From: Eubacteriales bacterium
GTDB taxonomy: Bacteria > Bacillota > Clostridia > Oscillospirales > CAG-382
Assembly (NCBI GenBank): GCA_045631825.1
Contig: JAZQVQ010000121.1
Location: forward strand, 1,129 to 65,128
Direction of reading: 5' to 3'
DNA length: 64,000 nt
The position numbers and the translations under genes are program-made. Shown here one piece after another: positions 12,786 to 51,230 of this stretch. Each line of letters starts with the position of its first letter. Within the stretch, counting starts at the first letter, position 1. Below the pieces are notes generated by a model. The model ran no database searches and was not told the origin of the DNA. It saw only the letters and a list, made by a program, of their open reading frames with translations.

Positions 12786-12805
12786 GGATTCGTTAAAACG
12801 CATAG

Positions 12806-12823
12806 AATCGGGTGCGATAAAAC
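12806..12823 (+). promoter_or_regulatory. operator-like direct repeat, copy 2 (GAATCGGGTGCGATAAAA)
   Basis: Same core as 12730-12746, located just downstream of the predicted transcription start. Confidence 0.45.
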
Positions 12824-12845
12824 ACCCTAGTTTAGGGACAAAAGG

Positions 12846-39023: not shown

Positions 39024-41474
39024 ATGATTTTCAAAGAAAATGCGCCGAGATATTGGGCGAAAGGTCTACCTGTCATACCATTGGTAGGAAAGGCACCGGT
39101 ATTGGCTGCGTGGCAGAGGTACAACGATTCGTTACCCAACGAAAAAGAGATGGAGTATATGCTCAAAAACCACGCTGATTGCAATATGGGTTTACCGTTG
39201 GGGAAGCAATCCAGATGTGTTGCGTTAGATATTGACTCGGAGATTGGGTCTGAAATAGCGTTGATTGATGAGTTGATACCGAGTTCACCTTGGATTCGTG
39301 TGGGTAAGAAGGGTAAGGTTGTAATGTTCCGTTACAACGGCGAGAAGACTTTTCGTATCAAAGATGAAAGCGGTCGGACGATTTGTGAACTTTTGTCGAG
39401 CAGAACGCAGGTGGTGTTACCGCCATCCATTCACCCCGACACGAAAGCGCCCTACGTCGCCAACGGTGATTTGGTAGATTTGGTGGATTCGTTACCGGTT
39501 TTACCGCAAAACATCGAGGACATCTTAAGAAACGCCTTTGTGGAACGGTTGGGGTTACGGTTAAATCACGTTGGTTGGACGAAGACGGTTGATTTTGTAT
39601 CTCGTGGTTCACGTGATGTGAAGATGACGAGTGTTGCCGGTCTGTATGCCAATGCGGTTTTGCGTGGTGAGATGACGTTGAAGGAAGCCATTGAGATTTT
39701 CCGTGCGTGGTGTTCTACGCAGACCGAGCAGGTTGCGGGCGACCCGATTGACGTGGAGAAGGGCGTGAGCAATCTCGTAAAATTTTTACTGCGAAACGTC
39801 ATCGGCGAGAAGAAACGTCCTTTACCGACGGGTTGGGACAACGGGCTCACAGCGGACGAGAAAAAGCAGTTAGGTGTTGTGATTGACGAGGATGCGAACG
39901 TATCGTGGGATTTCCCCAAACTGCGTGATTATTTGAAGTCAGCATTCGAGGAATCCAACGGCGATGCGGTTGAGGTTGACCGGATTATTGACTATGCGTT
40001 AGACAAGGTCGCCCGGTCGCAGAGTATGAATTCGTTAGAAGTTGACCGTGCGTTACATCACATTGCCAATTTAACGAAGGATGCGAACGTTCCGGCCCTA
40101 CGCAAGCGTATGTTGGAAATGCAACGTGACGGCATTATGGGTTCGAACCACACGGAGATTGCGAGAGCGGTTTTGAGAGATTTGAACGACATCATACCGG
40201 ATGCGGAAGAGTTCAGCACGCAGAGGGAGTTCAATTCACTGCGGTATTACAACGACGAGTTCTGGCAGTGGGCAGGTTCGCATTGGGAGATGATGAACAA
40301 GAGTGAGATTTTGCGTTTAATTTCGAGGGAGTACGGCAATTTACCTGCGGCAACCCGTGCCAACGACCACAAGGGGATTTTGACGGTTATGAAATCGCAG
40401 TTGTGTACAGATTTAGCGGAGGACAACACTGCCGGGGTTAATTACGCCAACGGTTTTGTGGATGCGTACGGTGTTCTTCACGAACATTCCAAAAAATACG
40501 GATGTACTTACACGTTGCCGTATTGTTACAGACCGGAATTGGCGAGTTTAGAGGCCGCACCCAAGTTTGCACGGTTCTTAAAATCAGTCTGGGGACAGGA
40601 CGAAGATTACGAGGAGAAGGTGCGTGCCTTACGCCAAGTTATCGGTGCGACCATTTTCGGATTAGGACCGTCCTTTGCCCGTGCGATTTTATTGTTTGGG
40701 ATTGGGCAGTCTGGTAAAACGCAACTTTTGACCATTATTTCGAAGTTGTTACCGAGCGAGGCACTCAGTTACGTTACCCCGTACGACTTCGATGACAAGT
40801 TCAAACCGGTCAAATTATCCACTTCACTTTTGAATATTTGTGGGGAATTGGACGAAAAACGGGATATTCCCTCCGCCAATTTCAAACAGGTGGTGGACGG
40901 AAGTGTTATGCAGGGCCAATACAAAGGTCGGGATGTGTTTTCATTCGTACCAAAAGCGACACATTGGTTTGCCTCGAACCATTTACCAAAATCAAAAGAC
41001 ACCACGGAAGGGTTCAATCGGCGCTGGGCTGTGTTCACTTTCAACCGGATGGTGCCAAAAGAAGAAAAAATACGTGGTATCGGGGATATTATCGTAGCCG
41101 AAGAACGGGAAGCCATTTCAGCGTGGGCCATCGGGGCTATGGGTGACTTACATCGCAAGTCTGATTACGATTTACCCAGAAGTCATTACAAAACGGTCGA
41201 GGATATGTGTTCTGAGAACGATAGTCTTTTCTTCTTCCTGACTGCCGACGAAGGTCCTCGGAAAGTGGATGCCGGTGAGGTGGAAATGGAACGCCTATAC
41301 GAGGCTTATCGTGCCTTCTGCTACTCAATCGCCGGGGCCAAACCAATCGGACTGCGTAAATTCTATACCCGTATGCGTGAAATGGGCATAATTATGGGCT
41401 TTGGGGTTAAGCAGTTGGTTGTCGAAGGCCTGAGTCTTGACCGCACGGTCGGTGTTAAACTGGGGAGGGGATGA
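39024..41474 (+). CDS. bifunctional primase-polymerase / D5(P4)-type SF3 helicase
   Basis: 816 aa. N-terminal prim-pol pattern (GLPVIPLVGKAPVLAAWQRY ... VALDIDS ... VVLPPSIHPDT). C-terminal Walker A GIGQSGKT and Walker B-like region. Confidence 0.9.
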   Translation: MIFKENAPRYWAKGLPVIPLVGKAPVLAAWQRYNDSLPNEKEMEYMLKNHADCNMGLPLGKQSRCVALDIDSEIGSEIALIDELIPSSPWIRVGKKGKVVMFRYNGEKTFRIKDESGRTICELLSSRTQVVLPPSIHPDTKAPYVANGDLVDLVDSLPVLPQNIEDILRNAFVERLGLRLNHVGWTKTVDFVSRGSRDVKMTSVAGLYANAVLRGEMTLKEAIEIFRAWCSTQTEQVAGDPIDVEKGVSNLVKFLLRNVIGEKKRPLPTGWDNGLTADEKKQLGVVIDEDANVSWDFPKLRDYLKSAFEESNGDAVEVDRIIDYALDKVARSQSMNSLEVDRALHHIANLTKDANVPALRKRMLEMQRDGIMGSNHTEIARAVLRDLNDIIPDAEEFSTQREFNSLRYYNDEFWQWAGSHWEMMNKSEILRLISREYGNLPAATRANDHKGILTVMKSQLCTDLAEDNTAGVNYANGFVDAYGVLHEHSKKYGCTYTLPYCYRPELASLEAAPKFARFLKSVWGQDEDYEEKVRALRQVIGATIFGLGPSFARAILLFGIGQSGKTQLLTIISKLLPSEALSYVTPYDFDDKFKPVKLSTSLLNICGELDEKRDIPSANFKQVVDGSVMQGQYKGRDVFSFVPKATHWFASNHLPKSKDTTEGFNRRWAVFTFNRMVPKEEKIRGIGDIIVAEEREAISAWAIGAMGDLHRKSDYDLPRSHYKTVEDMCSENDSLFFFLTADEGPRKVDAGEVEMERLYEAYRAFCYSIAGAKPIGLRKFYTRMREMGIIMGFGVKQLVVEGLSLDRTVGVKLGRG

Positions 41475-42372
41475 TGGATAAACGTGAACTGCTCAAAATG
41501 AGTTTTGAGGACAAAGTACAACGCAGTAAAGAGTTGATTTTAGAGTGGTATTTGCAATATCGGGGTAAAGTCTATGTATCGTTTTCCGGTGGGAAGGACT
41601 CAACAGTCCTTCTCCATCTGTGCCGCAGTATCAAAGGTTGCGAAAACGTGGCGGGTGTGTTCTCAGATACCGGGTTGGAATATCCGGAGATTAGGCAGTT
41701 TGTCAAGAAACAAGAAAATATCATTTGGATTAAACCAAAAATGACCTTTAAAGAGGTCATCGAGAAGTACGGCTGGCCCGTCGTGAGCAAAGAAGTCGCT
41801 CAGAAAATCTCAGAAATCCGGAATACGGGCAGTGAGAAACTTCGGAACAAACGCCTTTATGGTGATGAACGAGGGAATGGGAAGTTACCCGCCAAATGGT
41901 TGCCAATGGTGGACGCACCTTTCAAAATCACAAGTAAATGCTGTAATATTATGAAGAAAAACGTTTTTGCGAAGTTTGAGAGAGAGAGAGTGGGTTAAAA
42001 CCAATTTTGGGTGTTATGGCCACTGAAAGCAAATTACGGATGACAAAATTCCTTAAAGGGAATTGTAATGCGTTCAGTTCGGCACATCCAAAGTCTGAAC
42101 CGTTGTCTTTTTGGACAGAGGATGATATTTGGGAATATATCCGTAGATATAATGTGGAAATCTGCGAGGTTTATACCAAATGTGGGTTGAAAAGAACCGG
42201 ATGTATGTTCTGTATGTTCGGTTGTCATTTGGGTGGGGACAAAAGATTTGAGATTATGCGGAGGCAGTGGCCTAAACAATATGCCTATATTATGGATAAG
42301 TTGGGTGGGAGAGCGGTGTTCGAGGAATATATGAGAATTGCACACCTTGAAAATAAAAATAGGGTCGAATAA
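41471..42372 (+). pseudogene. PAPS-reductase-family (PP-loop ATPase) gene interrupted by a frameshift at a (GA)6 tract
   Basis: ORF 41471..41998 carries the PP-loop SFSGGKDS. ORF 42007..42372 (open from 41980) carries the C-terminal half, including a CMFCMFGC cluster. The two frames overlap only across GAGAGAGAGAGAG (41978-41990). Confidence 0.7.
41978..41990 (+). repeat. (GA)6G dinucleotide microsatellite
   Basis: Read directly from the sequence. It is located exactly at the frame switch of the split gene. Confidence 0.95.
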
Positions 42373-42403
42373 AAAATGGGATAGTTTCATCCAAAGGTTG
42401 GTT

Positions 42404-42424
42404 TTTTGTCTAAATTTTTGTCTA
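42404..42424 (+). repeat. TTTTGTCTAA doublet (copy A)
   Basis: TTTTGTCTAAATTTTTGTCTA. A near-identical doublet lies at 46751-46771, and both sit upstream of early promoters. Confidence 0.8.
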
Positions 42425-42435
42425 CCCCCTTATGA

Positions 42436-42449
42436 GAGTCGCAAGACTC
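42436..42449 (+). repeat. hairpin-B family copy (GAGTC-GCAA-GACTC)
   Basis: 5-bp stem with a GNRA loop, downstream of the PAPS-reductase gene. Confidence 0.8.
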
Positions 42450-42496
42450 CGACTTGATAAAAAATCTATTTTTTTTATTTTTTTATAAAATAATGC

Positions 42497-42525
42497 TTGA
42501 CATTAAAACGAAAGTGTGATATAAT
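42497..42525 (+). promoter_or_regulatory. consensus sigma70 promoter P1 with extended -10
   Basis: TTGACA, 17-nt spacer ending in TGA, TATAAT. An A/T-rich UP-like tract lies upstream. Confidence 0.8.
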
Positions 42526-42595
42526 GACTATATCAAGCAAGGGGATGGATTCGCTGTTCTCACTTGATAAAATAAAAATATAAGGATATAAAACA

Positions 42596-43252
42596 ATGAA
42601 AACAAAAAACACAAAAACAACAAAAAACACAAAAAACACAAAAAACACAAAAAAAGAATACACCAACAAAGCTTTAGAAAGCCAGCTAATTTTAATTAGG
42701 AAATCAATCAAAAAAGCAAGGGAAGCTTCGCAAGAATATACAGCTAATTTAATTTACGCTTTTTTACTGGATTCGCAAGAATACAAAAAAACAGAATCCC
42801 GAATCCGTTCCATTTTAGCTGATTCGTTCGGTAATGATTGGCAAGCCGTCAAAGGGTCTGAAAATAGAAAGATTCGCTATGCTAGAATCATTTTTGAATC
42901 AAGAATCGAAGCTTTGAAAAATTGCAAAAATCCAGATGAGGTTTTGCATTATCTGAAAACGAATCAAGAACAGCTGAGTCATTCAAAAGTTTTGAATATC
43001 AATACGAATCAAGCAAGCAAGCAAGCAAGCAAGAAAGCAATCAAGCAAGAAAGCAATCAAGAAAGCAATCAAGAAAGCAAGTCGAATCTTTATGGGAAGA
43101 ATCCGAATCCAGAATCCGAATCAATGGAAGTCATAGCTTTCATCAAGTCAGCTGTGAAAAATCCGAAGCTGTTAGCTTTGATGAATGAAAAGCTAGCCGA
43201 ATCAGGTATCCGAATCCAGTGCATAGCGAATCCGATTCGGAAAGTGGCATAG
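42596..43252 (+). CDS. repeat-rich basic hypothetical protein
   Basis: 218-aa ORF with its own promoter P1 and terminator. It contains KNT repeats (9-nt A-rich units), a period-4 AAGN tract (43011-43082) and a dense GAATC cluster. Confidence 0.55.
   Translation: MKTKNTKTTKNTKNTKNTKKEYTNKALESQLILIRKSIKKAREASQEYTANLIYAFLLDSQEYKKTESRIRSILADSFGNDWQAVKGSENRKIRYARIIFESRIEALKNCKNPDEVLHYLKTNQEQLSHSKVLNINTNQASKQASKKAIKQESNQESNQESKSNLYGKNPNPESESMEVIAFIKSAVKNPKLLALMNEKLAESGIRIQCIANPIRKVA
43011..43082 (+). repeat. period-4 AAGC/AAGA/AATC tract (18 units)
   Basis: AAGCAAGCAAGCAAGCAAGCAAGAAAGCAATC... read directly. It encodes QASKQASKKAIKQESNQESNQESK. Confidence 0.9.
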
Positions 43253-43254
43253 TC

Positions 43255-43304
43255 AAGAGAGAGTCGCAAGACTCTCTTTTTTCTTTTTTTTTTCTTTTTT
43301 TTTT
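43255..43304 (+). terminator. intrinsic terminator built on a hairpin-B core
   Basis: AAGAGAGAGTC-GCAA-GACTCTCTTTT stem (8-11 bp, GNRA loop), then a T-rich tract of about 27 nt. Confidence 0.85.
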
Positions 43305-43357
43305 AACTATGCGTAAGGGTTTTTGAAAAATTTGAATCGCCCGAATCGCAAAAATCG

Positions 43358-43373
43358 GAGTCGCAAGACTCCA
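43358..43373 (+). repeat. hairpin-B family copy (GGAGTC-GCAA-GACTCC)
   Basis: 6-bp stem, 24 nt upstream of the ATG at 43398. Confidence 0.85.
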
Positions 43374-43397
43374 ACAACATTTTGAAAGGAACAAACA

Positions 43398-43553
43398 ATG
43401 ATTAAAGGTGTAATCCAACAATTTTGTAAAACATTAGAACAAGCTGAATCTATCCAATCGGAACTTTACGAGAAATACGATTCTGTGCAGTTAGTATCTT
43501 TCCCAACGACACAGGAGGAAGGAATCTACATTTTTAAAGTAGAAAAAAGGTAA
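43398..43553 (+). CDS. small hypothetical protein (51 aa, below the ORF-track cutoff)
   Basis: ATG is preceded by the canonical hairpin-B, CAACAA and GAAAGGAA leader. The frame is open to TAA at 43551-43553. Confidence 0.45.
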   Translation: MIKGVIQQFCKTLEQAESIQSELYEKYDSVQLVSFPTTQEEGIYIFKVEKR

Positions 43554-43581
43554 TTTTTAGCATTTTTTCTACCTAAAACTC

Positions 43582-43610
43582 TTGACAATACAACAAAAGT
43601 ATGATATAAT
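43582..43610 (+). promoter_or_regulatory. consensus sigma70 promoter P2 with extended -10
   Basis: CTTGACAATACAACAAAAGTATGATATAAT. The upstream TTTTTTCTACCTAAAAC is shared with P4. Confidence 0.85.
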
Positions 43611-43650
43611 CATATCTGTAATCGGGACAACCCGAAACAACTCAACCAAT

Positions 43651-43666
43651 GGAGTCCCGAGACTCC
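43651..43666 (+). repeat. hairpin-B family copy (GGAGTC-CCGA-GACTCC)
   Basis: 28 nt upstream of the ATG at 43695. Confidence 0.9.
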
Positions 43667-43694
43667 AACAACCAACCTGAAAGGAACTAACGCA

Positions 43695-44003
43695 ATGAAA
43701 CACACATTATTTATCGGATTGAATGACAAGGACACGAAACAACAAGAAATTGACACTATCACAGCCTATAAAACGCTGATTCGCCTTATGACAAAGAACG
43801 GCTACACGGGTGGGACGATTTCCCAAGCCGAGGGATTTTATACTCATCAGGACGGCAGTTTTACAACCGAAAAAATGATTCGGGTGGAAATTATCGATGC
43901 CGATGCAGTCAAGACCACTAACCTCATCAACGACATCAAGGTAGCCTTGAATCAGGAATGCGTAGGCTTACAGGAAGAAGTCGTCAAAACGAGTTTTGTG
44001 TAG
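43695..44003 (+). CDS. hypothetical protein
   Basis: 102-aa ORF with a P2 / hairpin-B / GAAAGGAA leader. Confidence 0.65.
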   Translation: MKHTLFIGLNDKDTKQQEIDTITAYKTLIRLMTKNGYTGGTISQAEGFYTHQDGSFTTEKMIRVEIIDADAVKTTNLINDIKVALNQECVGLQEEVVKTSFV

Positions 44004-44040
44004 GTGGAGTTTCCCTTATATTTATCCACCTAGCACGAGC

Positions 44041-44074
44041 AGTTTGGAGTCCCGAGACTCCAAACTGTATTTTT
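44041..44074 (+). terminator. extended hairpin-B copy with T-run (terminator candidate)
   Basis: AGTTTGGAGTC-CCGA-GACTCCAAACT (11-bp stem), then GTATTTTT. Confidence 0.6.
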
Positions 44075-44102
44075 AACCACTAATACGAAAGGAAACTTTA
44101 CA

Positions 44103-44531
44103 ATGGCAACAGCTAATTTTAAACAAATGGACAAATTTGATTTGTGGGTATATGAACCAGATTTTTGTGGGGATTTACCCGAGAATCCAGAGGAATGCGA
44201 CTATGATTTCGCTTACGAGGATTTTACCACCAATTTCGACTCTTTACCAAAGCCCAACACGGACTTTTTTGACATCAGCCTGAAATCTGGGCATTATTCT
44301 GGGGTGCAGATTTATGTGGACTACAAGCCCGACTTATGCGACCCGAAGCATCTTACCAACGAGGACACACGGTATTTTTTGGATTTACCGTTATCGGTGG
44401 CGAAGCGTAGGCACGAAGCCGAAATCAAACGAATCCAAAAGTGGCTTGCCCGACTCGGCAGAATCGGGGCAGTCAAACTGATAGCAGTGGCACGATTTTC
44501 AAATGGGGAGGTATGGTATGAACGAGCCTAA
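44103..44531 (+). CDS. hypothetical protein
   Basis: 142-aa ORF with GAAAGGAAAC upstream. Confidence 0.65.
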   Translation: MATANFKQMDKFDLWVYEPDFCGDLPENPEECDYDFAYEDFTTNFDSLPKPNTDFFDISLKSGHYSGVQIYVDYKPDLCDPKHLTNEDTRYFLDLPLSVAKRRHEAEIKRIQKWLARLGRIGAVKLIAVARFSNGEVWYERA

Positions 44532-44685
44532 ACGCACGAGAACCTATCTAACGGCACACAAAGCCAACGGACGGTGGTATTTTAAAGAACACAAAACCAA
44601 AAAACCTGATTTAGAAACTTTATTAAACAATTATTTGAAAGGAACAAACTATGGCAACACCAAAAACATTAAAACGAATCGATAA
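44518..44685 (+). CDS. small basic hypothetical protein
   Basis: ATG at 44518 is preceded by GGGGAGG. It overlaps both neighbouring ORFs. Confidence 0.35.
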   Translation: MNEPKRTRTYLTAHKANGRWYFKEHKTKKPDLETLLNNYLKGTNYGNTKNIKTNR

Positions 44686-44845
44686 GGAAAAAGCCTTAAA
44701 GATTATGAACAAACATTATTTAAACGGAACAGGATATTACGAATACGGGGATTGTGGCGACTTTATCTACGAGGAACGGGGTCGTTTATATCTCATTCGG
44801 TCAACATTCGGACAAGAGTATGAAACAGGCGAGGTGGCACAATGA
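44651..44845 (+). CDS. hypothetical protein
   Basis: 64-aa ORF with GAAAGGAACAAACT upstream. Confidence 0.55.
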   Translation: MATPKTLKRIDKEKALKIMNKHYLNGTGYYEYGDCGDFIYEERGRLYLIRSTFGQEYETGEVAQ

Positions 44846-45087
44846 AGAAATACAGAGCAACGATAGAACGGAAAGTCGTCAAGACTTTACTTTTGACTTA
44901 CGAGTTCGAGTCCCGAGACTCCGTAGACCGTATCAAAGAGGAGTTGAGAAACGGTTGGGCTGACTCATACGCAACCCCGATTGACGAGGATTATTTTGAA
45001 GAGGAGTACAACGATAGGTTGTTGACGCTTGAATCTTTGGACGAGGATTCTGAACCGTTATTTGACTTTTTGAGTGATGAAAAATAA
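44842..45087 (+). CDS. acidic hypothetical protein (contains an in-frame hairpin-B copy)
   Basis: 81 aa, ATGA overlap, GAGGTGG upstream. GAGTCCCGAGACTCC at 44908-44922 reads E-S-R-D-S. Confidence 0.6.
   Translation: MKKYRATIERKVVKTLLLTYEFESRDSVDRIKEELRNGWADSYATPIDEDYFEEEYNDRLLTLESLDEDSEPLFDFLSDEK
44908..44922 (+). repeat. hairpin-B family copy inside a CDS
   Basis: GAGTC-CCGA-GACTCC, codon-aligned as ESRDS. Confidence 0.8.
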
Positions 45088-45101
45088 TGACAAAATGAAA
45101 A

Positions 45102-45131
45102 CAGTTGGGTGTTAAACCAAGCACCCAACTG
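45102..45131 (+). repeat. 10-bp perfect hairpin CAGTTGGGTG / CACCCAACTG
   Basis: Follows the stop at 45087. It shares the CCAAGCA / CCCAACTGC motif with 45196-45214 and with the P4 leader. Confidence 0.7.
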
Positions 45132-45214
45132 CCCATACCACACTACTGACGATTCGCAACCGAAAACCAAACTGCTCGTTTTTGGGTATTCAAAACCCAA
45201 GCACCCAAGCAGTT

Positions 45215-45229
45215 GGAGTCCCGAGACTC
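45215..45229 (+). repeat. hairpin-B family copy
   Basis: GGAGTC-CCGA-GACTC, 12 nt upstream of the P3 -35 hexamer. Confidence 0.85.
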
Positions 45230-45240
45230 TGAAAAACCTC

Positions 45241-45269
45241 TTGACTTTTCTACCTGAATAAGGTAGAAT
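45241..45269 (+). promoter_or_regulatory. sigma70 promoter P3 with embedded palindromic operator candidate
   Basis: TTGACT, 17-nt spacer, TAGAAT. The palindrome TCTACCT-gaata-AGGTAGA spans the spacer and the -10. Confidence 0.7.
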
Positions 45270-45362
45270 TACTATTGCGACTAGGGAGTCTAGACCCGAA
45301 AAGATAGCAACTCACTATCCTGTCGCAATATGTTTTTGAGTTGTTTTTATAGGAGTATAAAA

Positions 45363-45866
45363 ATGATAAATTGTGATTACGAATTTTCATTTATCTTTGG
45401 AAAAATAGGGACTTGCACTTACTGTGGCGAACCTGCTGATACGATTGAACATTTAATACCTTGGTCTGTGATTACGAGCAGTGATTCGAGTAGAAAGATA
45501 AAGGGTTTCTGCACTTACGCTTGCCGAGAATGTAATTGTTTCGCATCAAATCGGGTTTTTCACACTTTTGAGGAACGAGTAAAATTTGTCCACGAAAAAT
45601 TGAGAAAGAAATACAAGCGATATATGGGGGTTGTTTGGGATAGTGGTGAATTAAACCAAACCACTGGAAATTTGAAAAAATATATACGAGGTTGTAATAC
45701 TTTGAACAAGATTGCTAGGCAACGATTAGCATATCCCACCTCAAATGAATTTTGGGAAATCCTAAATTCGGCTCGTGAGGATGCCTATTTAGACCCCAGA
45801 ATCCCAAAAAATCTTTTGGAATTTCTCGTCCCAACAGATTGGACACCAAGTTGGGTTGAAAAATAA
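45363..45866 (+). CDS. HNH-like endonuclease candidate
   Basis: ATG is preceded by AGGAG. CTYCGEPADTIEHLIPWS ... CRECNCFASN resembles an HNH/zinc-ribbon core. Confidence 0.5.
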   Translation: MINCDYEFSFIFGKIGTCTYCGEPADTIEHLIPWSVITSSDSSRKIKGFCTYACRECNCFASNRVFHTFEERVKFVHEKLRKKYKRYMGVVWDSGELNQTTGNLKKYIRGCNTLNKIARQRLAYPTSNEFWEILNSAREDAYLDPRIPKNLLEFLVPTDWTPSWVEK

Positions 45867-46049
45867 AAAACAAGGAAAGGGGGTTTTTAAGCGTTTCCTA
45901 TCACGGATACCTAAAAACCCCCGTTTGCCTCTGTAAGACCCCTTTACGGCGTTTTTAGAGGCATTTTAACTCGGAAGTATATCCCCAACTTTCGAGTTTT
46001 TTAAATTTTTAACCATTTTGGGGATATTTTTAACACGAAAGGATACACA

Positions 46050-46442
46050 ATGATAAAAATCGTAGAAGAAATCGGAATTAGAGAGTTTAAACCTTGGTCG
46101 GGGGCAGTAGACCCCTTCAATGAAATTGAAGAATGTGGCAAACTGGACCAATTTGAGCAGTTGATTGAACAGTTATACCCAGAGGGAATTTCTCGCACTG
46201 GTATCAATGATTGGCTCTGGCACGAAACAGAAAGCCTCTACGAGGCTCTCGGTATGATACGCTCGGAATCTGAACTCCAAGACATCATCACCGACAATGT
46301 CATAGAACCAAACGCTGATTTAGACCAATTTCTCGACTCAGAGGATTTTAACTGCTATGAACGGGACAAAATCAGAACCAATTTTGAGGATTGGGTGGAC
46401 GATTACCAGTTTTTGCACGATTTGGGAAAATATGCCGACTAA
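46050..46442 (+). CDS. strongly acidic hypothetical protein
   Basis: 130 aa, roughly one quarter Asp/Glu by eye, with GAAAGGATAC upstream. Confidence 0.65.
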   Translation: MIKIVEEIGIREFKPWSGAVDPFNEIEECGKLDQFEQLIEQLYPEGISRTGINDWLWHETESLYEALGMIRSESELQDIITDNVIEPNADLDQFLDSEDFNCYERDKIRTNFEDWVDDYQFLHDLGKYAD

Positions 46443-46532
46443 AGTTTGGTAGTATCGGTGGAGGCAGTCGAGAGGTGGGCGTGGGCAGTTTTTGACCAAA
46501 ATTGCCCAAATTAACAAAAGTTGTAATTTTTA

Positions 46533-46724
46533 CACTTAAGAAGCAGAAGTCATTGATTTTATTGAATCTGGTATGTCACTTTACTTTTTCTAACTCGGTT
46601 TCCCTGAAAAAAAATGGGGTAAAAATATATAAAAAGGGTAAAAAATATATATATAAAAGCGAGTTGAAGAATCTTAAGTGACATATCGGATTCAATGTTT
46701 TCAATGACTTACGCTTCTTAAGTG
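46533..46724 (+). repeat. large inverted repeat (49-nt arms, 94-nt AT-rich spacer)
   Basis: Arms 46533-46581 and 46676-46724 pair at 41 Watson-Crick plus 3 G-T positions out of 49. The core contains GGGTAAAAA(A)TATATA twice. Confidence 0.85.
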
Positions 46725-46750
46725 ACATTTTGAGAACCCCAAAATGGCAT

Positions 46751-46771
46751 TTTTGTCTAATTTTTGTCTAA
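46751..46771 (+). repeat. TTTTGTCTAA doublet (copy B)
   Basis: TTTTGTCTAATTTTTGTCTAA. Compare 42404-42424. Confidence 0.8.
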
Positions 46772-46881
46772 AATTACCCATTTTTCATAAACGAAAGTAG
46801 TAAAGTCAACCAAGTGTATAAGCATACCAAAGTTTTAACATCAAAAAATCACAAAAAACTGATTTTTTCTACCTAAAACAC

Positions 46882-46910
46882 TTGACAATACTACAAAAGT
46901 ATGCTATAAT
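46882..46910 (+). promoter_or_regulatory. consensus sigma70 promoter P4 with extended -10
   Basis: CTTGACAATACTACAAAAGTATGCTATAAT. Confidence 0.85.
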
Positions 46911-46918
46911 AAAGGTAT

Positions 46919-46947
46919 CCAAGCAGGAAAAGGGACTCACTGCTTGG
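46919..46947 (+). repeat. 5'-terminal leader hairpin (hairpin C, copy 1)
   Basis: CCAAGCAG-GAAAAGGGACTCA-CTGCTTGG, starting about 8 nt after the -10 of P4. Confidence 0.75.
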
Positions 46948-46986
46948 GTATTTCAATCCAACTGCTTGGGTGGTTCGGATTACACA

Positions 46987-47034
46987 CCCCACAACCCCAC
47001 AACCCAGCAACCCCACAACCCCACAACCCCACAA
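46987..47034 (+). repeat. octamer tandem repeat (CCCCACAA) x6
   Basis: Five exact units plus one CCCAGCAA variant, in the 5' leader of the 47073 gene. The complement is TTGTGGGG x6. Confidence 0.95.
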
Positions 47035-47036
47035 CA

Positions 47037-47050
47037 GAGTCCCGAGACTC
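47037..47050 (+). repeat. hairpin-B family copy
   Basis: GAGTC-CCGA-GACTC, 22 nt upstream of the ATG at 47073. Confidence 0.85.
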
Positions 47051-47072
47051 CAACAGATGAAAGGAAAAGCAA

Positions 47073-47366
47073 ATGAAAACGGAGTATATTTCGCAAGAGA
47101 ACGCAGACAGATTGTATCGGATATTAAACCGTGCAAGTGGTTGTTATTTCAAGGTTTATGACACAGAGTCGCACGTTATTACGACGAGGTTTCCAGAGAA
47201 GTTGATTATGGCGATTGACGGAGGGGACGAGGAGATTCGGATAGAGATTTACGACCACAGCGAGCGTGTATATCGTGGGACATTGTATTTACTGCCGTAT
47301 GAGGAGGATTCGATGCCTTACGATTGGTCTGACAACGCATTTATGGACAAGTTATTAGATTTTTGA
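47073..47366 (+). CDS. hypothetical protein
   Basis: 97-aa ORF with GAAAGGAAAAGCAA upstream. Confidence 0.65.
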   Translation: MKTEYISQENADRLYRILNRASGCYFKVYDTESHVITTRFPEKLIMAIDGGDEEIRIEIYDHSERVYRGTLYLLPYEEDSMPYDWSDNAFMDKLLDF

Positions 47367-47411
47367 GGGCGTAGAAAACTATCTAAACTAAAATGATTTG
47401 TCAAGTAAAAC

Positions 47412-47435
47412 CCACCTCGCCTATCGGCTCGGTGG
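47412..47435 (+). repeat. hairpin-A family copy (CCACC stem, TATC loop)
   Basis: CCACCTCGCC-TATC-GGCTCGGTGG. Confidence 0.85.
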
Positions 47436-47448
47436 AGGAAGATGACAC

Positions 47449-47464
47449 GGAGTCCCGAGACTCC
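47449..47464 (+). repeat. hairpin-B family copy
   Basis: GGAGTC-CCGA-GACTCC, 34 nt upstream of the ATG at 47499. Confidence 0.9.
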
Positions 47465-47498
47465 ACATTACAACTAAAAATTGAGAAAGGAAAATAAA

Positions 47499-47948
47499 AT
47501 GGAAAAAACTATAACATTTAAAATTGATAAGAATCGCAAAGCAGAGATTGAGATTACCTTGGGTGATGAGGGACGGTTTTCTGTCTGTGGTAGTTTGTAT
47601 GAAAAGAATCGGTCCAAATGGGAGTGTGAGTATTGTGGACAATGTTTGGACTCGCTTTCCGAGTTGATTACTGACCCATTATTTACGCAGATTTATTTCT
47701 TATGGAAACGGTATCATTTGAATGATTTGCACGCAGGGACTCCTGTGCAGGAGTATGCGTTGGAACATTCCCCCATTGGTTCTTTGTTGGAAGCTGATTA
47801 CAAACACCGTTGTGAGTATTTAAAATCCATTGGTTTATATGAGGTCAGTGGGTATAAGTATGGACACGGTTGGTTGACTGAAACTATCGAACCACACGAT
47901 TTGGAATTGATAAAAAGCATCGCAACAGGCGAACGCAACCTCGCCTGA
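47499..47948 (+). CDS. hypothetical protein
   Basis: ATG follows GAAAGGAAAATAAA. Its TGA stop lies in the loop of the next hairpin-A copy. Confidence 0.65.
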   Translation: MEKTITFKIDKNRKAEIEITLGDEGRFSVCGSLYEKNRSKWECEYCGQCLDSLSELITDPLFTQIYFLWKRYHLNDLHAGTPVQEYALEHSPIGSLLEADYKHRCEYLKSIGLYEVSGYKYGHGWLTETIEPHDLELIKSIATGERNLA

Positions 47949-47960
47949 CGGCTCGGTTGC
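47935..47960 (+). repeat. hairpin-A family copy (GCAACC stem, TGAC loop)
   Basis: GCAACCTCGCC-TGAC-GGCTCGGTTGC. Confidence 0.85.
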
Positions 47961-47970
47961 TAAATAAAAC

Positions 47971-47986
47971 GGAGTCCCGAGACTCC
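47971..47986 (+). repeat. hairpin-B family copy
   Basis: GGAGTC-CCGA-GACTCC, 23 nt upstream of the ATG at 48010. Confidence 0.9.
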
Positions 47987-48009
47987 AACAACCAAGAAAG
48001 GAAAATAAA

Positions 48010-48357
48010 ATGATTACAGTGCAAATGGAAGAAAGTGATGTTTTGGATTTATTTATCCAGCGTATAAATTATTGGACAACAGACCCAGTCGTTGCCAATT
48101 TATATACCGATATGTATGAAAGATTGCTCGAAGATGGGTGTTTCAATCACACCCAACTGGATATACAGAGAATCGTAGATAACGATTATGTGAATAACTG
48201 CTCAATCATATATTCAGACGACCCAGATTTCGATAAATACTTTAAGATTTACGAGGAACGGGGTGCGTGCGATATATCTGACGAGGATTTATCTTATTCA
48301 TATATCGAATCGGTAGATAATGACGATGAACCAACAATGATGTTGGTGCGTAGATAA
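48010..48357 (+). CDS. acidic hypothetical protein
   Basis: 115-aa ORF with GAAAGGAAAATAAA upstream. Confidence 0.65.
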   Translation: MITVQMEESDVLDLFIQRINYWTTDPVVANLYTDMYERLLEDGCFNHTQLDIQRIVDNDYVNNCSIIYSDDPDFDKYFKIYEERGACDISDEDLSYSYIESVDNDDEPTMMLVRR

Positions 48358-48401
48358 AAAAAAAAACCCGTCAAGTGCTTTTTTATCCGAAAAGCACTTG
48401 A
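48356..48401. other. A10 tract plus 13-bp perfect hairpin that includes the -35 of P5
   Basis: GTCAAGTGCTTTT (48369-81) pairs with AAAAGCACTTGAC (48389-401). Read on the minus strand, this is a hairpin followed by a T-run. Confidence 0.6.
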
Positions 48402-48425
48402 CAATATAACCAAAGTATGCTATAA
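48397..48425 (+). promoter_or_regulatory. consensus sigma70 promoter P5 with extended -10
   Basis: CTTGACAATATAACCAAAGTATGCTATAAT. Confidence 0.85.
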
Positions 48426-48433
48426 TGTATTTA

Positions 48434-48462
48434 TCAAGGCAGGAAAAGGGACTCACTGCTTT
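48434..48462 (+). repeat. 5'-terminal leader hairpin (hairpin C, copy 2)
   Basis: CAAGGCAG-GAAAAGGGACTCA-CTGCTTTG. The 13-nt loop is identical to copy 1, and the stem carries a paired G/T insertion. Confidence 0.7.
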
Positions 48463-48469
48463 GACCGAA

Positions 48470-48493
48470 CCCACCTCGCCTATCGGCTCGGTG
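48470..48493 (+). repeat. hairpin-A family copy
   Basis: CCACCTCGCC-TATC-GGCTCGGTGG. Confidence 0.85.
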
Positions 48494-48500
48494 GAGAACA

Positions 48501-48514
48501 GAGTCCCGAGACTC
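48501..48514 (+). repeat. hairpin-B family copy
   Basis: GAGTC-CCGA-GACTC, flanked on both sides by hairpin-A copies. Confidence 0.85.
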
Positions 48515-48519
48515 AAACA

Positions 48520-48541
48520 CACCTCGCCTATCGGCTCGGTG
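48520..48541 (+). repeat. hairpin-A family copy (shortened outer stem)
   Basis: CACCTCGCC-TATC-GGCTCGGTG. Confidence 0.8.
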
Positions 48542-48562
48542 GAAGAATGAAAGGAAATTACA

Positions 48563-49054
48563 ATGAGAGAATCAACAAAATATAATAAAATCATCGGTAT
48601 TGCGAATGGTTCGGTTTATGTGTTAGAAGAAACCTTTACATACTCTGGCGAGTTTAAAGGTTGCTGTGGATACACAATGTCCACGATTTCGCAGGATTAT
48701 ATTGACGAACGCAATGATGTCGATTGGTTGTGCGATAATTATGATTATGTATGGCGTGAGGCTGTGCAAGCACAGCAAACAACAATGGGTCTTGAGGATT
48801 TTATGGACGATTGGGTGCGTAATTGTTGTGAGTTGTTTCCGACAGACGACTCCTCGTTTCGTATGGATTTCGAACAAGCGTTGGAAGATGCTCGTCCAGA
48901 GGTTGCCAAAAAAGTTATTGAGTATTTTGGTGCTGACAGCGAGGATTTTGGTGCTTGGAACAACGAGGGTTGTGGGCGTTGTTTTCACAAAGATATGGAA
49001 TGGGACGAATTGTTTGAACCAGAACTTTGGGAAATGATTCGTGCTACCGAATAG
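48563..49054 (+). CDS. acidic, Cys-containing hypothetical protein
   Basis: 163-aa ORF with GAAAGGAAATTACA upstream. Confidence 0.65.
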   Translation: MRESTKYNKIIGIANGSVYVLEETFTYSGEFKGCCGYTMSTISQDYIDERNDVDWLCDNYDYVWREAVQAQQTTMGLEDFMDDWVRNCCELFPTDDSSFRMDFEQALEDARPEVAKKVIEYFGADSEDFGAWNNEGCGRCFHKDMEWDELFEPELWEMIRATE

Positions 49055-49060
49055 ATGAAC

Positions 49061-49086
49061 GCAACCTCGCCTGACGGCTCGGTTGC
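49061..49086 (+). repeat. hairpin-A family copy (GCAACC stem, TGAC loop)
   Basis: The 35-nt block GAACGCAACCTCGCCTGACGGCTCGGTTGCTAAAT is identical to 47931-47965. Confidence 0.85.
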
Positions 49087-49100
49087 TAAATGAAAAACTC

Positions 49101-49123
49101 GGAGTCCCGAGTCTCGGGACTCC
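49101..49123 (+). repeat. expanded hairpin-B variant (23-nt perfect palindrome)
   Basis: GGAGTCCCGAG-T-CTCGGGACTCC, 23 nt upstream of the ATG at 49147. Confidence 0.9.
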
Positions 49124-49146
49124 ATAACACAAGAAAGGAAAATAAA

Positions 49147-49740
49147 ATGAAAACAGTAAATTACACGAATTTGTCAACAGCAATTTTTCAAGGGTTTTAT
49201 GAATCAAACTTGTATAATGCTGATAGCGAATACTATGCTAGAGAATACTTGGGGGAAGATTGCGAACTGCAAGATTTTAAAGGTTTTTGTAATAAGGTAG
49301 CCAAAAAGGCAGGCGATTTGTTGCACGAACAGGTTGTGTGGGACGACTCGCTTATCCAACGGATTGATTTCGTTGAGTTAGATAGTCCAGAGTTTTACAA
49401 TTACCGAACGGACCGATTGGTTTTGTCTGTTGATGTAGACACGGACGGTTTAGAGGAGTATTGCTTTGAAGAACACGCCGAAAAGTTTGCGAAGTATTTG
49501 GAAGATAATTTTACTTCTTATGACGGTTTCCATTCGTTTATTCGCAACACGCTCGGTGGTTTCAAGGAACAGTATGTTGAGGAAGATAAAAAGGGTCGCT
49601 GTTTGGATGTAATGATTGAGTTTTATATCTTACAAAACATCGATTTGGATTCGTATCAACTGGCTTTGGTTGAGTGTGCGAATGAAGAACTTTATAACTA
49701 TATGACAACCACCTCGCCTGACGGCTCGGTGGAGAACTGA
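49147..49740 (+). CDS. acidic hypothetical protein
   Basis: ATG follows GAAAGGAAAATAAA. The C-terminal codons TTSPDGSVEN are encoded by a hairpin-A copy. Confidence 0.65.
   Translation: MKTVNYTNLSTAIFQGFYESNLYNADSEYYAREYLGEDCELQDFKGFCNKVAKKAGDLLHEQVVWDDSLIQRIDFVELDSPEFYNYRTDRLVLSVDVDTDGLEEYCFEEHAEKFAKYLEDNFTSYDGFHSFIRNTLGGFKEQYVEEDKKGRCLDVMIEFYILQNIDLDSYQLALVECANEELYNYMTTTSPDGSVEN
49709..49732 (+). repeat. hairpin-A family copy (CCACC stem, TGAC loop) inside a CDS 3' end
   Basis: CCACCTCGCC-TGAC-GGCTCGGTGG. Confidence 0.85.
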
Positions 49741-49752
49741 AAGGAAAATAAA

Positions 49753-50031
49753 ATGAAAAATATACCGACAATTAGTTATGGTTTAATGGCAGAAGTTGTC
49801 AGAACCATTGAACACTTAAAAACTTTTAACTTTACCGATTTATCCGAAGTATCAGAACGACTTGATGTTTATGATTTTGGTGAGTATTATTGTGATTTCA
49901 CATTTTCATTGGGTGATTCGGAAATCGTGATTGAGGGAAGTTATTATATCGGGGATAAGGGTAACATAACTCTTTCCGATTGCTTTTCCGTATTTAATTC
50001 AGAAGCAGAACTTTTGTTGGAGGTAGATTAA
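49753..50031 (+). CDS. hypothetical protein
   Basis: 92-aa ORF with GAAAGGAAAATAAA upstream. Confidence 0.6.
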   Translation: MKNIPTISYGLMAEVVRTIEHLKTFNFTDLSEVSERLDVYDFGEYYCDFTFSLGDSEIVIEGSYYIGDKGNITLSDCFSVFNSEAELLLEVD

Positions 50032-50325
50032 ATGAAAATACTAATTGACACAAATTACAACACAGAACTTATGGCAGAAATTGGCTGTGAAATACAGGAA
50101 GTTAAACGTTTTATCGAAAATAAAACCTTTGAGGAATGTTATGATAATTTCCCGTGGGAAATAACCTGTGTTGTCACAGACGACTCTTTGTTCGATTTCT
50201 ATACGGATAGTTTGTCTGGAACAATCGAAAAGGGTGTAGACGGTAAAGCACAAACATCTGGTGTTTGGAGTTATTACCGAAACGGCGAATGTATTTTTGA
50301 TTTTGAGGAGAGTCACGATGATTAA
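50032..50325 (+). CDS. hypothetical protein
   Basis: 97-aa ORF that abuts the previous stop. Confidence 0.6.
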   Translation: MKILIDTNYNTELMAEIGCEIQEVKRFIENKTFEECYDNFPWEITCVVTDDSLFDFYTDSLSGTIEKGVDGKAQTSGVWSYYRNGECIFDFEESHDD

Positions 50326-50572
50326 ATGTGATGAAGATGGAAACGAAGTCAACACTGGCTCGTATTGGAAGTTTATTGAGGCTTATTATCCTAATTACGA
50401 TTCTTCCGATGAAATATGCGATAGCAACGATTTCAGCTTGTGGTTAGAGTGCGAACGAGCCAACCCACCGATGGGCTTGGAAAATTGTATTAAAAATGAA
50501 GTAGTGATTTTTGAAAAAGCACTGCGAAACTATATTAAATTAAGAAAGGAAAATAACAATGAAAACTTATGA
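50318..50572 (+). CDS. hypothetical protein
   Basis: ATG at 50318 has GAGGAG upstream. The ORF overlaps the previous stop. Confidence 0.55.
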   Translation: MIKCDEDGNEVNTGSYWKFIEAYYPNYDSSDEICDSNDFSLWLECERANPPMGLENCIKNEVVIFEKALRNYIKLRKENNNENL

Positions 50573-51024: not shown

Positions 51025-51026
51025 AA

Positions 51027-51227: not shown

Positions 51228-51230
51228 AAA

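Follow-up and report, generated by a model that had tools for sequence, protein, structure and literature searches.

The 64-kb stretch of DNA analysed here (the window), from an uncultivated pig-gut phage, carries four near-identical host-type promoters that are predicted to drive small early genes. The cassettes built on them are retained in close relatives from pig-gut assemblies (85–97% nucleotide identity), with gene content differing over about 44.8–52.6 kb between conserved flanks. Short repeated hairpins and the cassettes appear to mark the sites at which genes are swapped among these relatives, as the positions of the breakpoints described below support. We think it rather probable that the promoters are early promoters read by the host RNA polymerase, that stem-loops at the 5' end of their transcripts protect the mRNA, and that the repeats double as recombination linkers, in the manner of the promoter-early stem-loops (PeSLs) of T4-type phages.

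The phage encodes a terminase of the lambda GpA type along with tape measure and GpJ-like tip proteins and is a siphovirus-like lineage, unrelated to T4-type phages. The closest isolate relatives of its terminase (33–39% identity) were found in phages of roughly 80 kb, Achromobacter JWF being one example. The region between 42.4 and 52 kb looks like an early region of the host-takeover type, of which we infer the timing. As the original prediction had stated, its ORFs are small and mostly acidic: 18 of the 22 within 42.6–52.1 kb have a pI below 7, and for 16 of these it lies between 4.0 and 5.4. The first gene after promoter P1 (42596–43252, + strand) encodes a basic protein of 218 aa (pI 9.8) and contains internal tandem repeats and a very high density of GANTC. 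Across the clade, GANTC is enriched threefold in early regions.

A search of the window for TTGACA-N14-TGN-TATAAT gave exactly four perfect matches, all on the + strand (P1, 42497; P2, 43582; P4, 46882; P5, 48398), each having the elements of an extended −10 promoter of the sigma-70/sigma-A type (TTGACA, a spacer of 17 ± 1 nt, TGn and TATAAT). With up to two mismatches allowed, 13 matches were found against 1.1 expected, a number reached in no shuffle, and a second, independent promoter scan returned the same four sites (12/12, with TG). The TATG or TGTG preceding the −10 box agrees with the −16 motif (TRTG) known from promoters of Gram-positive bacteria. Counted with the C preceding the −35 box, the 30-nt cores differ at two positions between P2 and P4 and at three between P5 and either of these, while the core of P1 differs from the others at 4–6. 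The near-identity of P2, P4 and P5, with P1 as a fourth consensus promoter, had thus been correctly predicted, as had the 17-mer TTTTTTCTACCTAAAAC common to the upstream sequences of P2 and P4 (43563–43579 and 46863–46879). When the promoters of the window and of three relatives were aligned, spacer positions and flanks were conserved in all 12 copies from the four genomes. Because of this conservation of the spacer, we regard P1, P2, P4 and P5 as paralogous copies and not merely as good matches to the consensus.

P1 (42497–42525), in which a 17-nt spacer separates a perfect −35 from a perfect −10 with TG extension, is preceded by an AT-rich tract (42462–42495). P2 and P4 extend, with their upstream 17-mer, over 43563–43610 and 46863–46910, respectively. 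In P5 (48370–48426), the promoter follows a 13-bp stem-loop (48370–48402) whose 3' arm includes the −35 hexamer; this stem-loop has no T run on the + strand, and its stem is preserved with a U-G pair in the relative L015. P3 (TTGACT-17-TAGAAT) is weaker than the other four and travels with an HNH endonuclease gene (45363–45866) in a cassette (45241–45866, + strand) that begins directly after a copy of the repeat described below as hairpin B (45216–45229).

The predicted transcripts of P4 and P5 open with an 8-bp hairpin (P4, 46917–46949, core 46919–46947; P5, 48435–48463), and the 13-nt loop GAAAAGGGACTCA is identical in both (46927–46939 and 48443–48455). Folding gave −16.0 kcal/mol (z −4.2) for P4 and −12.7 kcal/mol (z −3.8) for P5. 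Both hairpins had been described beforehand, including the single G-U pair in the P5 stem, with P5 coordinates that were off by one. The common leader start ATC(A/C)AAG(C/G)A proposed for P1, P4 and P5 proved inexact, and could be recovered only by allowing 1-nt indels (ATCAAGCA, ATCCAAGCA and ATCAAGGCA). Missing from the original prediction were the 5'-terminal helices of P1 and P3, the two families of intergenic hairpins and the intercistronic joints that are described below. The P1 hairpin runs from the predicted +1 (42532–42568; AUCAAG...CUUGAU with an inner 8-bp helix; −11.7 kcal/mol, z −3.2), and the P3 leader contains an 8-bp closing helix (45276–45327). The transcription starts were taken from the spacing alone, as an A 7 nt past the −10 box; with starts so placed, P1, P3, P4 and P5 would each yield a stable helix with 0–1 unpaired 5' nucleotide. 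A helix begins at nucleotide 1–2 of the predicted transcript in four of the five promoters, compared with 10.9% of random 60-nt windows (binomial estimate about 6e-4). No conserved +1 hairpin was found for P2 by folding or by alignment of its copies.

Comparison of the relatives indicated how these hairpins vary. The P4 hairpin of L006 is identical to that of the window. In L015 P4, L015 P5 and a hybrid promoter of L006, the 8-bp stem is preserved through C-G to A-U, C-G to U-G and A-U to G-U changes, and the identity of the loop is not strictly maintained, AAGGG being invariant in all six variants. Across copies of the P4/P5 hairpin, 97.9% of cells were paired. Covariation was weak (one double change; the observed score was reached by 41 of 500 shuffles), and conservation of the stem could reflect descent rather than selection, the copies being recent paralogues. 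The P1 hairpin is preserved in L006 via wobble changes (−16.6 kcal/mol). In L007, with a terminase 76% identical, the P1 leader differs in sequence yet folds from +1, while L034 (55% terminase identity) has the same promoter type, and a search there for +1 hairpins found none. Downstream of the hairpin, the P4 leader carries a variable part (46961–47033, + strand) in which the 3' arm recurs as ACTGCTTGGGT (46961–46971), before five exact octamers ACCCCACA (46986–47033); 21 nt stand in its place in L006 and other repeats in L015.

An inverted repeat just 3' of a −10 box could also be a DNA operator through which a dimeric repressor shuts off the early promoters. Operators are typically found at such a position (+1 to +33), the 5' arm of the repeat, ATC(C)AAG(G)CA, is common to P1, P4 and P5, and the phage encodes small HTH proteins (HTH_3 or GerE-type, at 51538 and 52401) that might be such a repressor. 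We nevertheless consider an operator very unlikely, since the arms are asymmetric as DNA: P5, the L006 hybrid and the P1 helix (whose window copy has four) contain G-U pairs, which function only in + strand RNA, and since the spacing between the arms differs widely (25 nt in P1, 13 nt in P4 and P5). Because the G-U pairs are on the + strand only and because the P1 hairpin of the window and that of L006 differ by wobble-preserving changes, a structure formed at the RNA level is favoured.

The two families of intergenic hairpins outnumber the 5' hairpins and fill the spaces between genes. Hairpin B (GAGTC-N4-GACTC) is present in 13 copies within 42436–51731 on the + strand (starting at 42436, 43261, 43358, 43652, 44047, 44908, 45216, 47037, 47450, 47972, 48501, 49109 and 51718), in a window where about 1.4 GANTC palindromes of any kind would be expected by chance. 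It usually precedes a ribosome-binding site, nine of the copies lying 9–35 nt upstream of one of the GAAAGGA type. The copy at 49109 is part of a 23-nt palindrome (49101–49123). Two others are embedded in terminator-like hairpins that have, on the + strand, a run of T behind them: one (43255–43280) resembles an intrinsic terminator with the core GAGAGTC-GCAA-GACTCTC, and the other, a 13-bp hairpin (44039–44068) located 3' of a 102-aa gene, surrounds a hairpin B core. Hairpin A (CCACCTCGCC-N4-GGCTCGGTGG) is present in six copies within 47412–49732 on the + strand (47412–47435, 47935–47960, 48471–48494, 48519–48542, 49061–49086 and 49709–49732), with two versions of the stem, CCACC/GGTGG and GCAACC/GGTTGC, that differ by compensatory changes. 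Its 23–24-mers occur identically in Lachnospiraceae genomes, as intergenic repeats, and therefore provide a hint at the host.

The existence of hairpin B bears on the possibility that the 5' hairpin is a recognition element, either an RNA site close to the promoter at which a factor of the phage or host would act (for nut/put-like antitermination, translational control or processing) or a partner for long-range pairing with hairpin B. Simple protection of the 5' end would indeed need no identical loop, whereas the P4 and P5 loops are identical and AAGGG is invariant in six out of six variants. Furthermore, the loop sequence GGGACUC is complementary to GAGUCCC (5' arm and loop of hairpin B) in every variant, with one G-U position in L015 P4 and a match reduced to 6 nt in L015 P5; the P1 loop GGAUUCG is similarly complementary to CGAAUCC, and four of the nine CGAAUCC in the window are in the P1 gene. 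The terminator-like hairpins at 43255 and 44039, located inside operons, would also fit with antitermination. We still find a recognition element unlikely: the complementarity was spotted post hoc in a GANTC-rich region, and the GACTC of the loop is lost from both L015 copies. No boxA-like motif was found in any leader, no match in Rfam and no N-like arginine-rich protein among those recognised, and a lambda nut or HK022 put antitermination site was rejected on these grounds.

A wider proposal, to which we also give only a small chance, is that the three hairpin families together form a phage-specific post-transcriptional code, recognised by a dedicated RNA-binding protein or RNase of the phage or host. 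If so, this factor, on recognising the invariant stems, would control how each early cistron is processed, stabilised or translated, the GGGACUC of the 5' loop could pair with the GAGUC/GACUC arms of the hairpin B copies that precede ribosome-binding sites, and hairpin A would co-opt the factor with which the host handles repeats of its own. The GANTC in the stems, together with its enrichment in the early region, could provide a link to adenine methylation.

It is quite unlikely, in our view, that the similarity is a mere trace of recent duplication, with functional promoters surrounded by selfish or neutral debris (REP- or MITE-like) without a role in expression. Copies of a repeat from one genome are identical in sequence, while each lineage has repeats of its own (L035 carries CGTTCCACCGGTGGAACG in place of hairpin B), the copy number of several of them varies freely between close relatives, L015 has a degenerate 5' hairpin that no promoter accompanies, and hairpin A matches intergenic repeats of the presumed host, all as expected for debris. 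In contrast, their placement is consistent, both for the helix at the predicted +1 and for hairpin B ahead of the ribosome-binding site, the layout with a short hairpin before this site is maintained in lineages with other stem sequences, and stems are maintained by compensatory changes.

The original prediction that this is a hyperplastic region assembled by recombination was supported by the relatives. Gene differences are located between and 3' of the cassettes, as in the block between P4 and P5 (47073–48357, + strand; 97, 149 and 115 aa), where all the genes have hairpin A and/or B and a strong ribosome-binding site in front of them. Homology breaks off at 46948 (the end of the 5' hairpin), at 47031 (immediately before hairpin B), at about 47440 (hairpin A) and at 48367 (the start of the P5 module). 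Two relatives have P4/P5 hybrid promoters (L015 P4 and L006 P5x), which are direct evidence for exchange within modules. The cassette with P3 and the HNH gene, inserted beside a hairpin B copy, is absent or replaced in L006, L015, L016, L017 and L018. Recombination between modules is therefore supported by these breakpoints and hybrids, though most joints are at the small intercistronic modules of hairpin and ribosome-binding site, not at promoters, and two gene losses (an 81-aa ORF in L006 and a 97-aa ORF in L015) are internal deletions and not module exchange.

The explanation that we favour, protected early transcripts from shuffled cassettes, would then operate as follows. Host RNA polymerase holoenzyme of the sigma-70/sigma-A type would start expression at P1, P2, P4, P5 and the weaker P3, most likely at the A 7 nt after the −10 box. 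In the transcripts of P1, P3, P4 and P5, a stable stem-loop would form from the first 30–50 nt and leave 0–1 unpaired 5' nucleotide; purified B. subtilis RppH requires at least two (PMC3997798). The hairpin would thus most likely prevent both the removal of pyrophosphate from the 5' end and attack by nucleases that depend on this end (RppH with RNase E, or RNase J1), and the purine-rich, Shine-Dalgarno-like loop with its invariant AAGGG may contribute to this protection. Each downstream gene would be a plug-in unit, in which hairpin A and/or B is followed by a linker rich in C and A and then by a strong ribosome-binding site. Because the modules recur as identical patches of 20–90 nt, they could serve as substrates for homologous recombination and so generate the hyperplastic region.

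Hairpin B recalls the SAS/ESAS, short and partly inverted repeats, specific to each genome, that are found just upstream of many translation starts in Cluster K mycobacteriophages. SAS, however, overlaps the ribosome-binding site itself, while hairpin B lies 9–35 nt upstream, and sequence and phage lineage differ too. The 5' hairpins, with 0–1 unpaired nucleotide at the predicted start, would resemble the E. coli ompA 5' UTR and STAB-SD stabilisers (PMC3997798). Their purine-rich AAAGGG, similar to the GAAAGGA ribosome-binding site of the phage, also recalls the STAB-SD of B. subtilis and B. thuringiensis, which is single-stranded, though, and pairs with 16S rRNA. Here the element is in a hairpin loop, and AAAGGGA matches the canonical anti-SD, which may not be that of the host, over 5–6 nt including a wobble pair. 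SPO1's host-takeover module (PMC6873191, citing Stewart et al. 1998) likewise groups small early genes that the host polymerase transcribes, with operon promoters and ribosome-binding sites described there as typical of very highly expressed genes; it has no sequence relationship with the present region, and the passages on SPO1 in that paper make no mention of 5'-terminal hairpin cassettes or module-bounded shuffling.

The comparison system for the whole arrangement is that of the PeSLs (Arbiol et al. 2010, PMC2839356; Comeau et al. 2014, PMC4122927), promoter/stem-loop linkers that provide a precedent for the mediation of shuffling. Both have repeated, near-identical, strong sigma-70-like early promoters (with an activity that is predicted here), AT-rich DNA upstream and an adjacent stem-loop, in a hyperplastic region of small ORFs without assigned function, and in both the repeats bound insertions, deletions and replacements among close relatives. 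PeSLs belong to T4-like myoviruses, unlike the present phage, and their stem-loop, placed immediately upstream of the promoter, terminates transcription that arrives from before it, whereas the conserved stem-loop is here downstream and opens the transcript. P5 alone is directly preceded by a stem-loop, one devoid of a + strand T run, and none is conserved at P2 or P4. Many joints are, in addition, at hairpin/ribosome-binding-site modules that contain no promoter. The cassette layout is a variation on this known phage design and not a new type of system.

The original prediction was that the region 42497–48462 is made of reusable early expression cassettes. The window covers most of a phage genome. 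The minus strand carries the structural genes between 7.0 and 37.8 kb, among them those for a tape measure protein, a GpJ-like tip protein and a tail-collar fibre, with the GpA-type large terminase at 36067–37800 (minus strand; the start of the database copy differs by 2 residues from that of the window copy). Replication and accessory genes occupy the plus strand from 37.9 kb onward and include those for a PrimPol-helicase (39024–41474), a PAPS-reductase-like protein, a helicase, a 5'-3' exonuclease, a thioredoxin, an MT-A70 methyltransferase (59796–60350), a GapR-like protein and a small GerE/sigma-region-4 protein. The specificity of the methyltransferase could not be deduced from solved homologues, and no domain informative on the host was found in the lysis and tail genes. 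The nearest isolated phages, which are ~80-kb Proteobacteria phages such as Achromobacter JWF and Pseudoalteromonas KB12-38, showed 33–39% terminase identity. Close relatives were found in assemblies only, every source named being a pig gut metagenome. Sequence sets with relatives include SRR24653748, ERZ940877 and ERZ27241624. A megablast search of public phage records with the 6.4-kb region gave no match, and sensitive blastn with the P4 cassette and the hairpin A/B/ribosome-binding-site module gave trivial hits only (to a promoter-like stretch of a Levilactobacillus phage and, in ICP1, to a ribosome-binding-site stretch). In IMG/VR, the loop pattern had no hit, the hairpin B 16-mer had five unrelated single hits and the terminase peptide patterns retrieved no relative. 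The promoter-plus-hairpin pattern had six unrelated chance hits in JGI metagenomes, none homologous to the window.

The motif TTGACA-N14-TGN-TATAAT was present in perfect form exactly four times, always on the plus strand, at 42497 (P1), 43582 (P2), 46882 (P4) and 48398 (P5), while about 1.1 matches were expected even with two mismatches allowed. A second scan concurred on the four sites. As predicted, the 30-nt cores of P2, P4 and P5 were nearly identical (2–3 positions apart, P1 being 4–6 positions from those three), P2 and P4 shared the 17-mer upstream, and the ORFs were small and mostly acidic: 18 of the 22 between 42.6 and 52.1 kb had a pI below 7, with 16 at 4.0–5.4. The first gene after P2 (43695–44003) encodes a 102-aa product that weakly matches both the S-adenosylmethionine lyase family (E 5e-4) and DUF3574; an early anti-restriction role would fit. 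A weaker promoter, P3 (TTGACT-17-TAGAAT), lies at 45241. The promoter-like sites of the structural operons (31657, 27740, 21361 and 9588, minus strand) have TTGACA (TTGGCA at 21361), a 17-nt spacer and TG, followed by (C/T)TAT and a degenerate second half of the -10. This class, with a consensus -35, an extended -10 and a weak -10, may depend on an activator. We infer that the four consensus promoters would be read early by the host polymerase: their match to the consensus is perfect, they precede small acidic ORFs as well as the replication genes, and the structural genes have weaker -10 elements in front of them.

At 12720–12830, two copies of GAATCGGGTGCGA, placed near -45 and +25, flank TTGACA-17-TGCTAAAGT, a promoter-like site that precedes a small plus-strand gene pair set within the minus-strand late region; the arrangement looks like an operator-controlled switch. 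Two candidate internal promoters are a perfect TTGACA-18-TATAAT (52172–52201), located in an 89-aa ORF that immediately precedes the GerE/sigma-region-4 gene, and another site close to consensus (54048–54076); both are kept in L015, a pig gut relative 85–90% identical to the window (at 6760 and 9380). Direct repeats of TTTTTGTCTAA at 42403–42425 and 46750–46771, ~75–130 nt upstream of P1 and P4, may be a binding site for a regulator or initiator. They are retained in two relatives, L006 and L015 (as TTTTTGTCCAA in the latter), and upstream of P1 in a third, L007.

Transcripts from P4 and P5 had been predicted to begin directly with a hairpin carrying an identical 13-nt loop. The P4 hairpin and its loop were found as described, while the P5 hairpin is actually at 48435–48463. 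The loop is the same in both window copies but less constant across relatives (GAAAAGGGGCTCA and GAAAAGGGACTA in L015, GTAAGGGACTCA in L006), AAGGG alone being invariant. Both hairpins are the predicted minimum-energy folds (-16.0 and -12.7 kcal/mol, z -4.2 and -3.8 for P4 and P5, respectively). Two further cases had been overlooked: the P1 leader likewise opens with a hairpin (42532–42568, -11.7 kcal/mol) and the P3 leader with an 8-bp closing helix. With the seventh base downstream of the -10 taken as the transcript start, four of the five promoters had a helix (5 bp or longer) starting at nucleotide 1 or 2, versus 10.9% of random same-strand 60-nt windows; our binomial estimate (~6e-4) hinges on this assumed start site. 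In L007 (76% terminase identity), the P1 leader differs in sequence, yet begins with AUC and folds from +1. L034, a 55% relative, retains the promoter type, down to AAGTATGCTATA, and had no +1 hairpins at its promoters; the cassette is therefore a feature of the window's sub-lineage.

Across the six P4/P5 hairpin variants the 8-bp stem was conserved: 97.9% of cells were paired, and the changes comprised one double (C-G to A-U) and two wobble ones. A shuffle control (41/500) was weak, because the sequences are few and closely related. P5, the L006 hybrid cassette and the P1 helix (with four in its window copy) contain G-U pairs, which can form in plus-strand RNA only, and all differences between the P1 helices of the window and L006 preserve pairing through wobble. 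This strand asymmetry is a stronger argument for an RNA element than stem covariation. The G-U pairs, together with the variable spacing of the arms, also speak against the inverted repeat being a DNA operator. As to what such an RNA element would do, the most economical role is that a helix starting at +1 would shield the triphosphate end. Purified B. subtilis RppH requires at least two unpaired 5' nucleotides (PMC3997798), and, according to the same source and the work it cites, pairing at the 5' terminus is the classical barrier against RNase E and RNase J1. A STAB-SD-like contribution of the loop is possible, since it is purine-rich and resembles the phage's own ribosome-binding site.

Hairpin B (GAGTC-N4-GACTC) is an intergenic repeat present in 13 copies from 42436 to 51731, in one orientation throughout; ~1.4 GANTC palindromes of any type were expected in the window. 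Nine copies are positioned 9–35 nt 5' of a GAAAGGA-type ribosome-binding site, and two are lengthened into terminator-like hairpins followed by T runs. GANTC arms (GAGTC/GACTC, GATTC/GAATC, GACTC/GAGTC), with loops of 4–6 nt and G-U variants now and then, are common to the window clade, L007 and the related pair L010/L012, in which the hairpin before the ribosome-binding site is GATTC-CTAG-GAATC. The shared arms at first seemed to indicate sequence-specific recognition. A universal requirement for GANTC in this hairpin was ruled out by L035, a relative that has CGTTCCACCGGTGGAACG instead, seven times and mostly in the same position, and by L034, in which such hairpins are almost absent. A uniform hairpin of its own was noted at this position for the window, L007, L010, L012, L015, L018 and L035. 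Judging from these sequences, it is the layout that is conserved, not the sequence: a short, stable, genome-uniform hairpin 10–30 nt before the ribosome-binding site of early genes. Hairpin B could insulate this site from the upstream context, form a 5' cap after processing, or be the site of a co-evolving factor. In the window's early region (42001–50000), GANTC showed an enrichment of about threefold, with up to 24 per kb (43001–44000) versus ~3 elsewhere, and this enrichment includes tandem CGAATC repeats within a 218-aa gene. An early-over-late bias was seen in L034 and L035 too; L034 has two N6_N4 methyltransferases beside its PrimPol gene.

The loops of the P4 and P5 hairpins (46927–46939 and 48443–48455) contain GGGACUC, which is complementary over 7 nt to GAGUCCC of hairpin B copies downstream; complementarity is kept in all variants, with one G-U pair in L015 P4 and over 6 nt in L015 P5. 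This complementarity and the conservation of the loop would fit a 5' hairpin acting as a recognition site or antitermination element; however, the complementarity was spotted after the fact, the leaders contain no boxA, and a search of Rfam over 42.3–52.5 kb gave no match at gathering thresholds, with two sub-threshold chance hits only. Also post hoc, we noticed that GGAUUCG in the P1 loop (42545–42553) is complementary to CGAAUCC, which occurs 4 times inside the P1 gene and 9 times in the window.

Hairpin A (CCACCTCGCC-N4-GGCTCGGTGG, with a conserved 2x2 internal loop) is a second intergenic family, with six copies from 47412 to 49732. Its stem versions, CCACC/GGTGG and GCAACC/GGTTGC, differ by mutually compensatory changes. 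Together, the two families place A and/or B ahead of each cistron of the 47–50 kb segment, followed by a C/A-rich linker and then a strong ribosome-binding site. The consistent placement of the repeats argues against their being neutral debris. When one genome per species was scanned, the 23-mer of hairpin A was found in nine places. Three were in gut Lachnospiraceae (Coprococcus ammoniilyticus and two MAGs), with identity over 23–24 nt. These copies are intergenic, beside housekeeping genes, with degenerate copies adjoining, in tandem or paired, and a third stem version (GACC/GGTC) is found there. The other six matches, in other phyla (four in Actinomycetota: three Streptomyces and one Actinoallomurus), are probably due to chance. 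We estimate that genomes of ~42% G+C should yield well under one match by chance. The Lachnospiraceae matches suggest a Lachnospiraceae-like host, with which 40% G+C, a TRTG -16 motif and strong Shine-Dalgarno sites are all compatible. They also suggest that a copy of an interspersed host repeat resides in the phage.

The proposal that the region was assembled by recombination between regulatory modules was supported by the relatives, in which homology breaks where the 5' hairpin ends (46948), at the hairpin B edge (47031), at hairpin A (~47440) and where the P5 module starts (48367). L006, with a 100% identical terminase and 97% nucleotide identity in the structural genes, has P1, P2 and P4 in position, P4 and its hairpin being identical to the window's. 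It is without P3, the HNH gene and most of the 81-aa ORF, has 21 nt in the P4 leader where the window has an 83-nt repeat part, and, after the 97-aa gene, carries a promoter-plus-hairpin cassette followed by three genes not in the window. A leader peptide in the P4 leader was rejected, as the segment is missing or replaced in relatives. L015 keeps P2, P4 and P5, with an internal deletion in the 97-aa gene; its P4-P5 interval has genes of 151 and 69 aa versus 149 and 115 aa in the window, with more replacements as far as 52.6 kb. An alignment of 12 promoter copies revealed two hybrids, the products expected if recombination occurred within modules: P4 of L015 has P4 flanks and a P5-type spacer, and the extra L006 cassette has a P5-type upstream part and spacer with a P4-type discriminator and stem. 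The P3 and HNH endonuclease cassette (45230–45896), which begins straight after a hairpin B copy, is found only in the window among the sequences compared. It is missing from L018 and replaced by other sequence in L015, L016, L017 and L006. At this site, relatives have a 25-nt palindrome, GTATAATGTGTTAAACATTATAACC, in one to five copies (L015 1840–2076; L018 2297–2321; L006 2867–2891; absent from the window), amid CCAAGCAG/CTGCTTGG-type motifs. The idea that CCAAGCAG is a Chi-like over-represented octamer was unsupported (three copies per orientation in the window). The 81-aa and 97-aa ORFs lost sequence through internal deletions that are in frame, with the flanking signals untouched; these losses are not module-bounded.

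Two larger elements were also found. One, ~110 nt long and conserved between L006 (1240–1345, minus strand) and L015 (4165–4285), has hairpin A copies or an A-run/T-run stem on either side, is without counterpart in the window and may be a small structured RNA. The other is a ~195-nt near-perfect hairpin with an AT-rich apex (46533–46727, -90 kcal/mol, z -10.9) in the non-coding gap of 440 nt that precedes P4. It is kept in L006 and L015 with compensatory changes at multiple positions (CTTAAGAAGC/GCTTCTTAAG versus CTTGACGCG/CGCGTCAAG), and may serve as a replication origin or be a structured RNA.

We consider the hairpin families and the match to the host repeat as the most promising leads. 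The exact match of hairpin A provides a testable host assignment for an uncultivated phage clade and raises the question of the host repeat's job. Genetic tools are few for gut Firmicutes, in which the cassettes could be tried as expression parts, being compact and self-contained (a consensus promoter, a strong ribosome-binding site and two hairpins, one a putative 5' stabiliser and the other a putative insulator).

Relevant precedents include 5' stabilisers and SPO1's host-takeover module (PMC6873191). In T4-type phages, promoter-early stem-loops (PeSLs) combine repeated strong early promoters with stem-loops in hyperplastic regions subject to modular shuffling (PMC2839356, PMC4122927). The window region appears to resemble them in its repeated early promoters, its stem-loops and its module-bounded shuffling, but has neither the upstream terminator stem-loop nor the T4-like lineage, both of which define PeSLs. 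By this comparison, the cassettes are an analogue of PeSLs and not a member of this group, PeSLs being the closest described system. If the cassettes work as proposed, promoter/stem-loop linkers that express and shuffle accessory genes would not be peculiar to T4-type myoviruses, and would have originated independently in gut siphoviruses with a different anatomy, the promoter being followed by the 5' hairpin.
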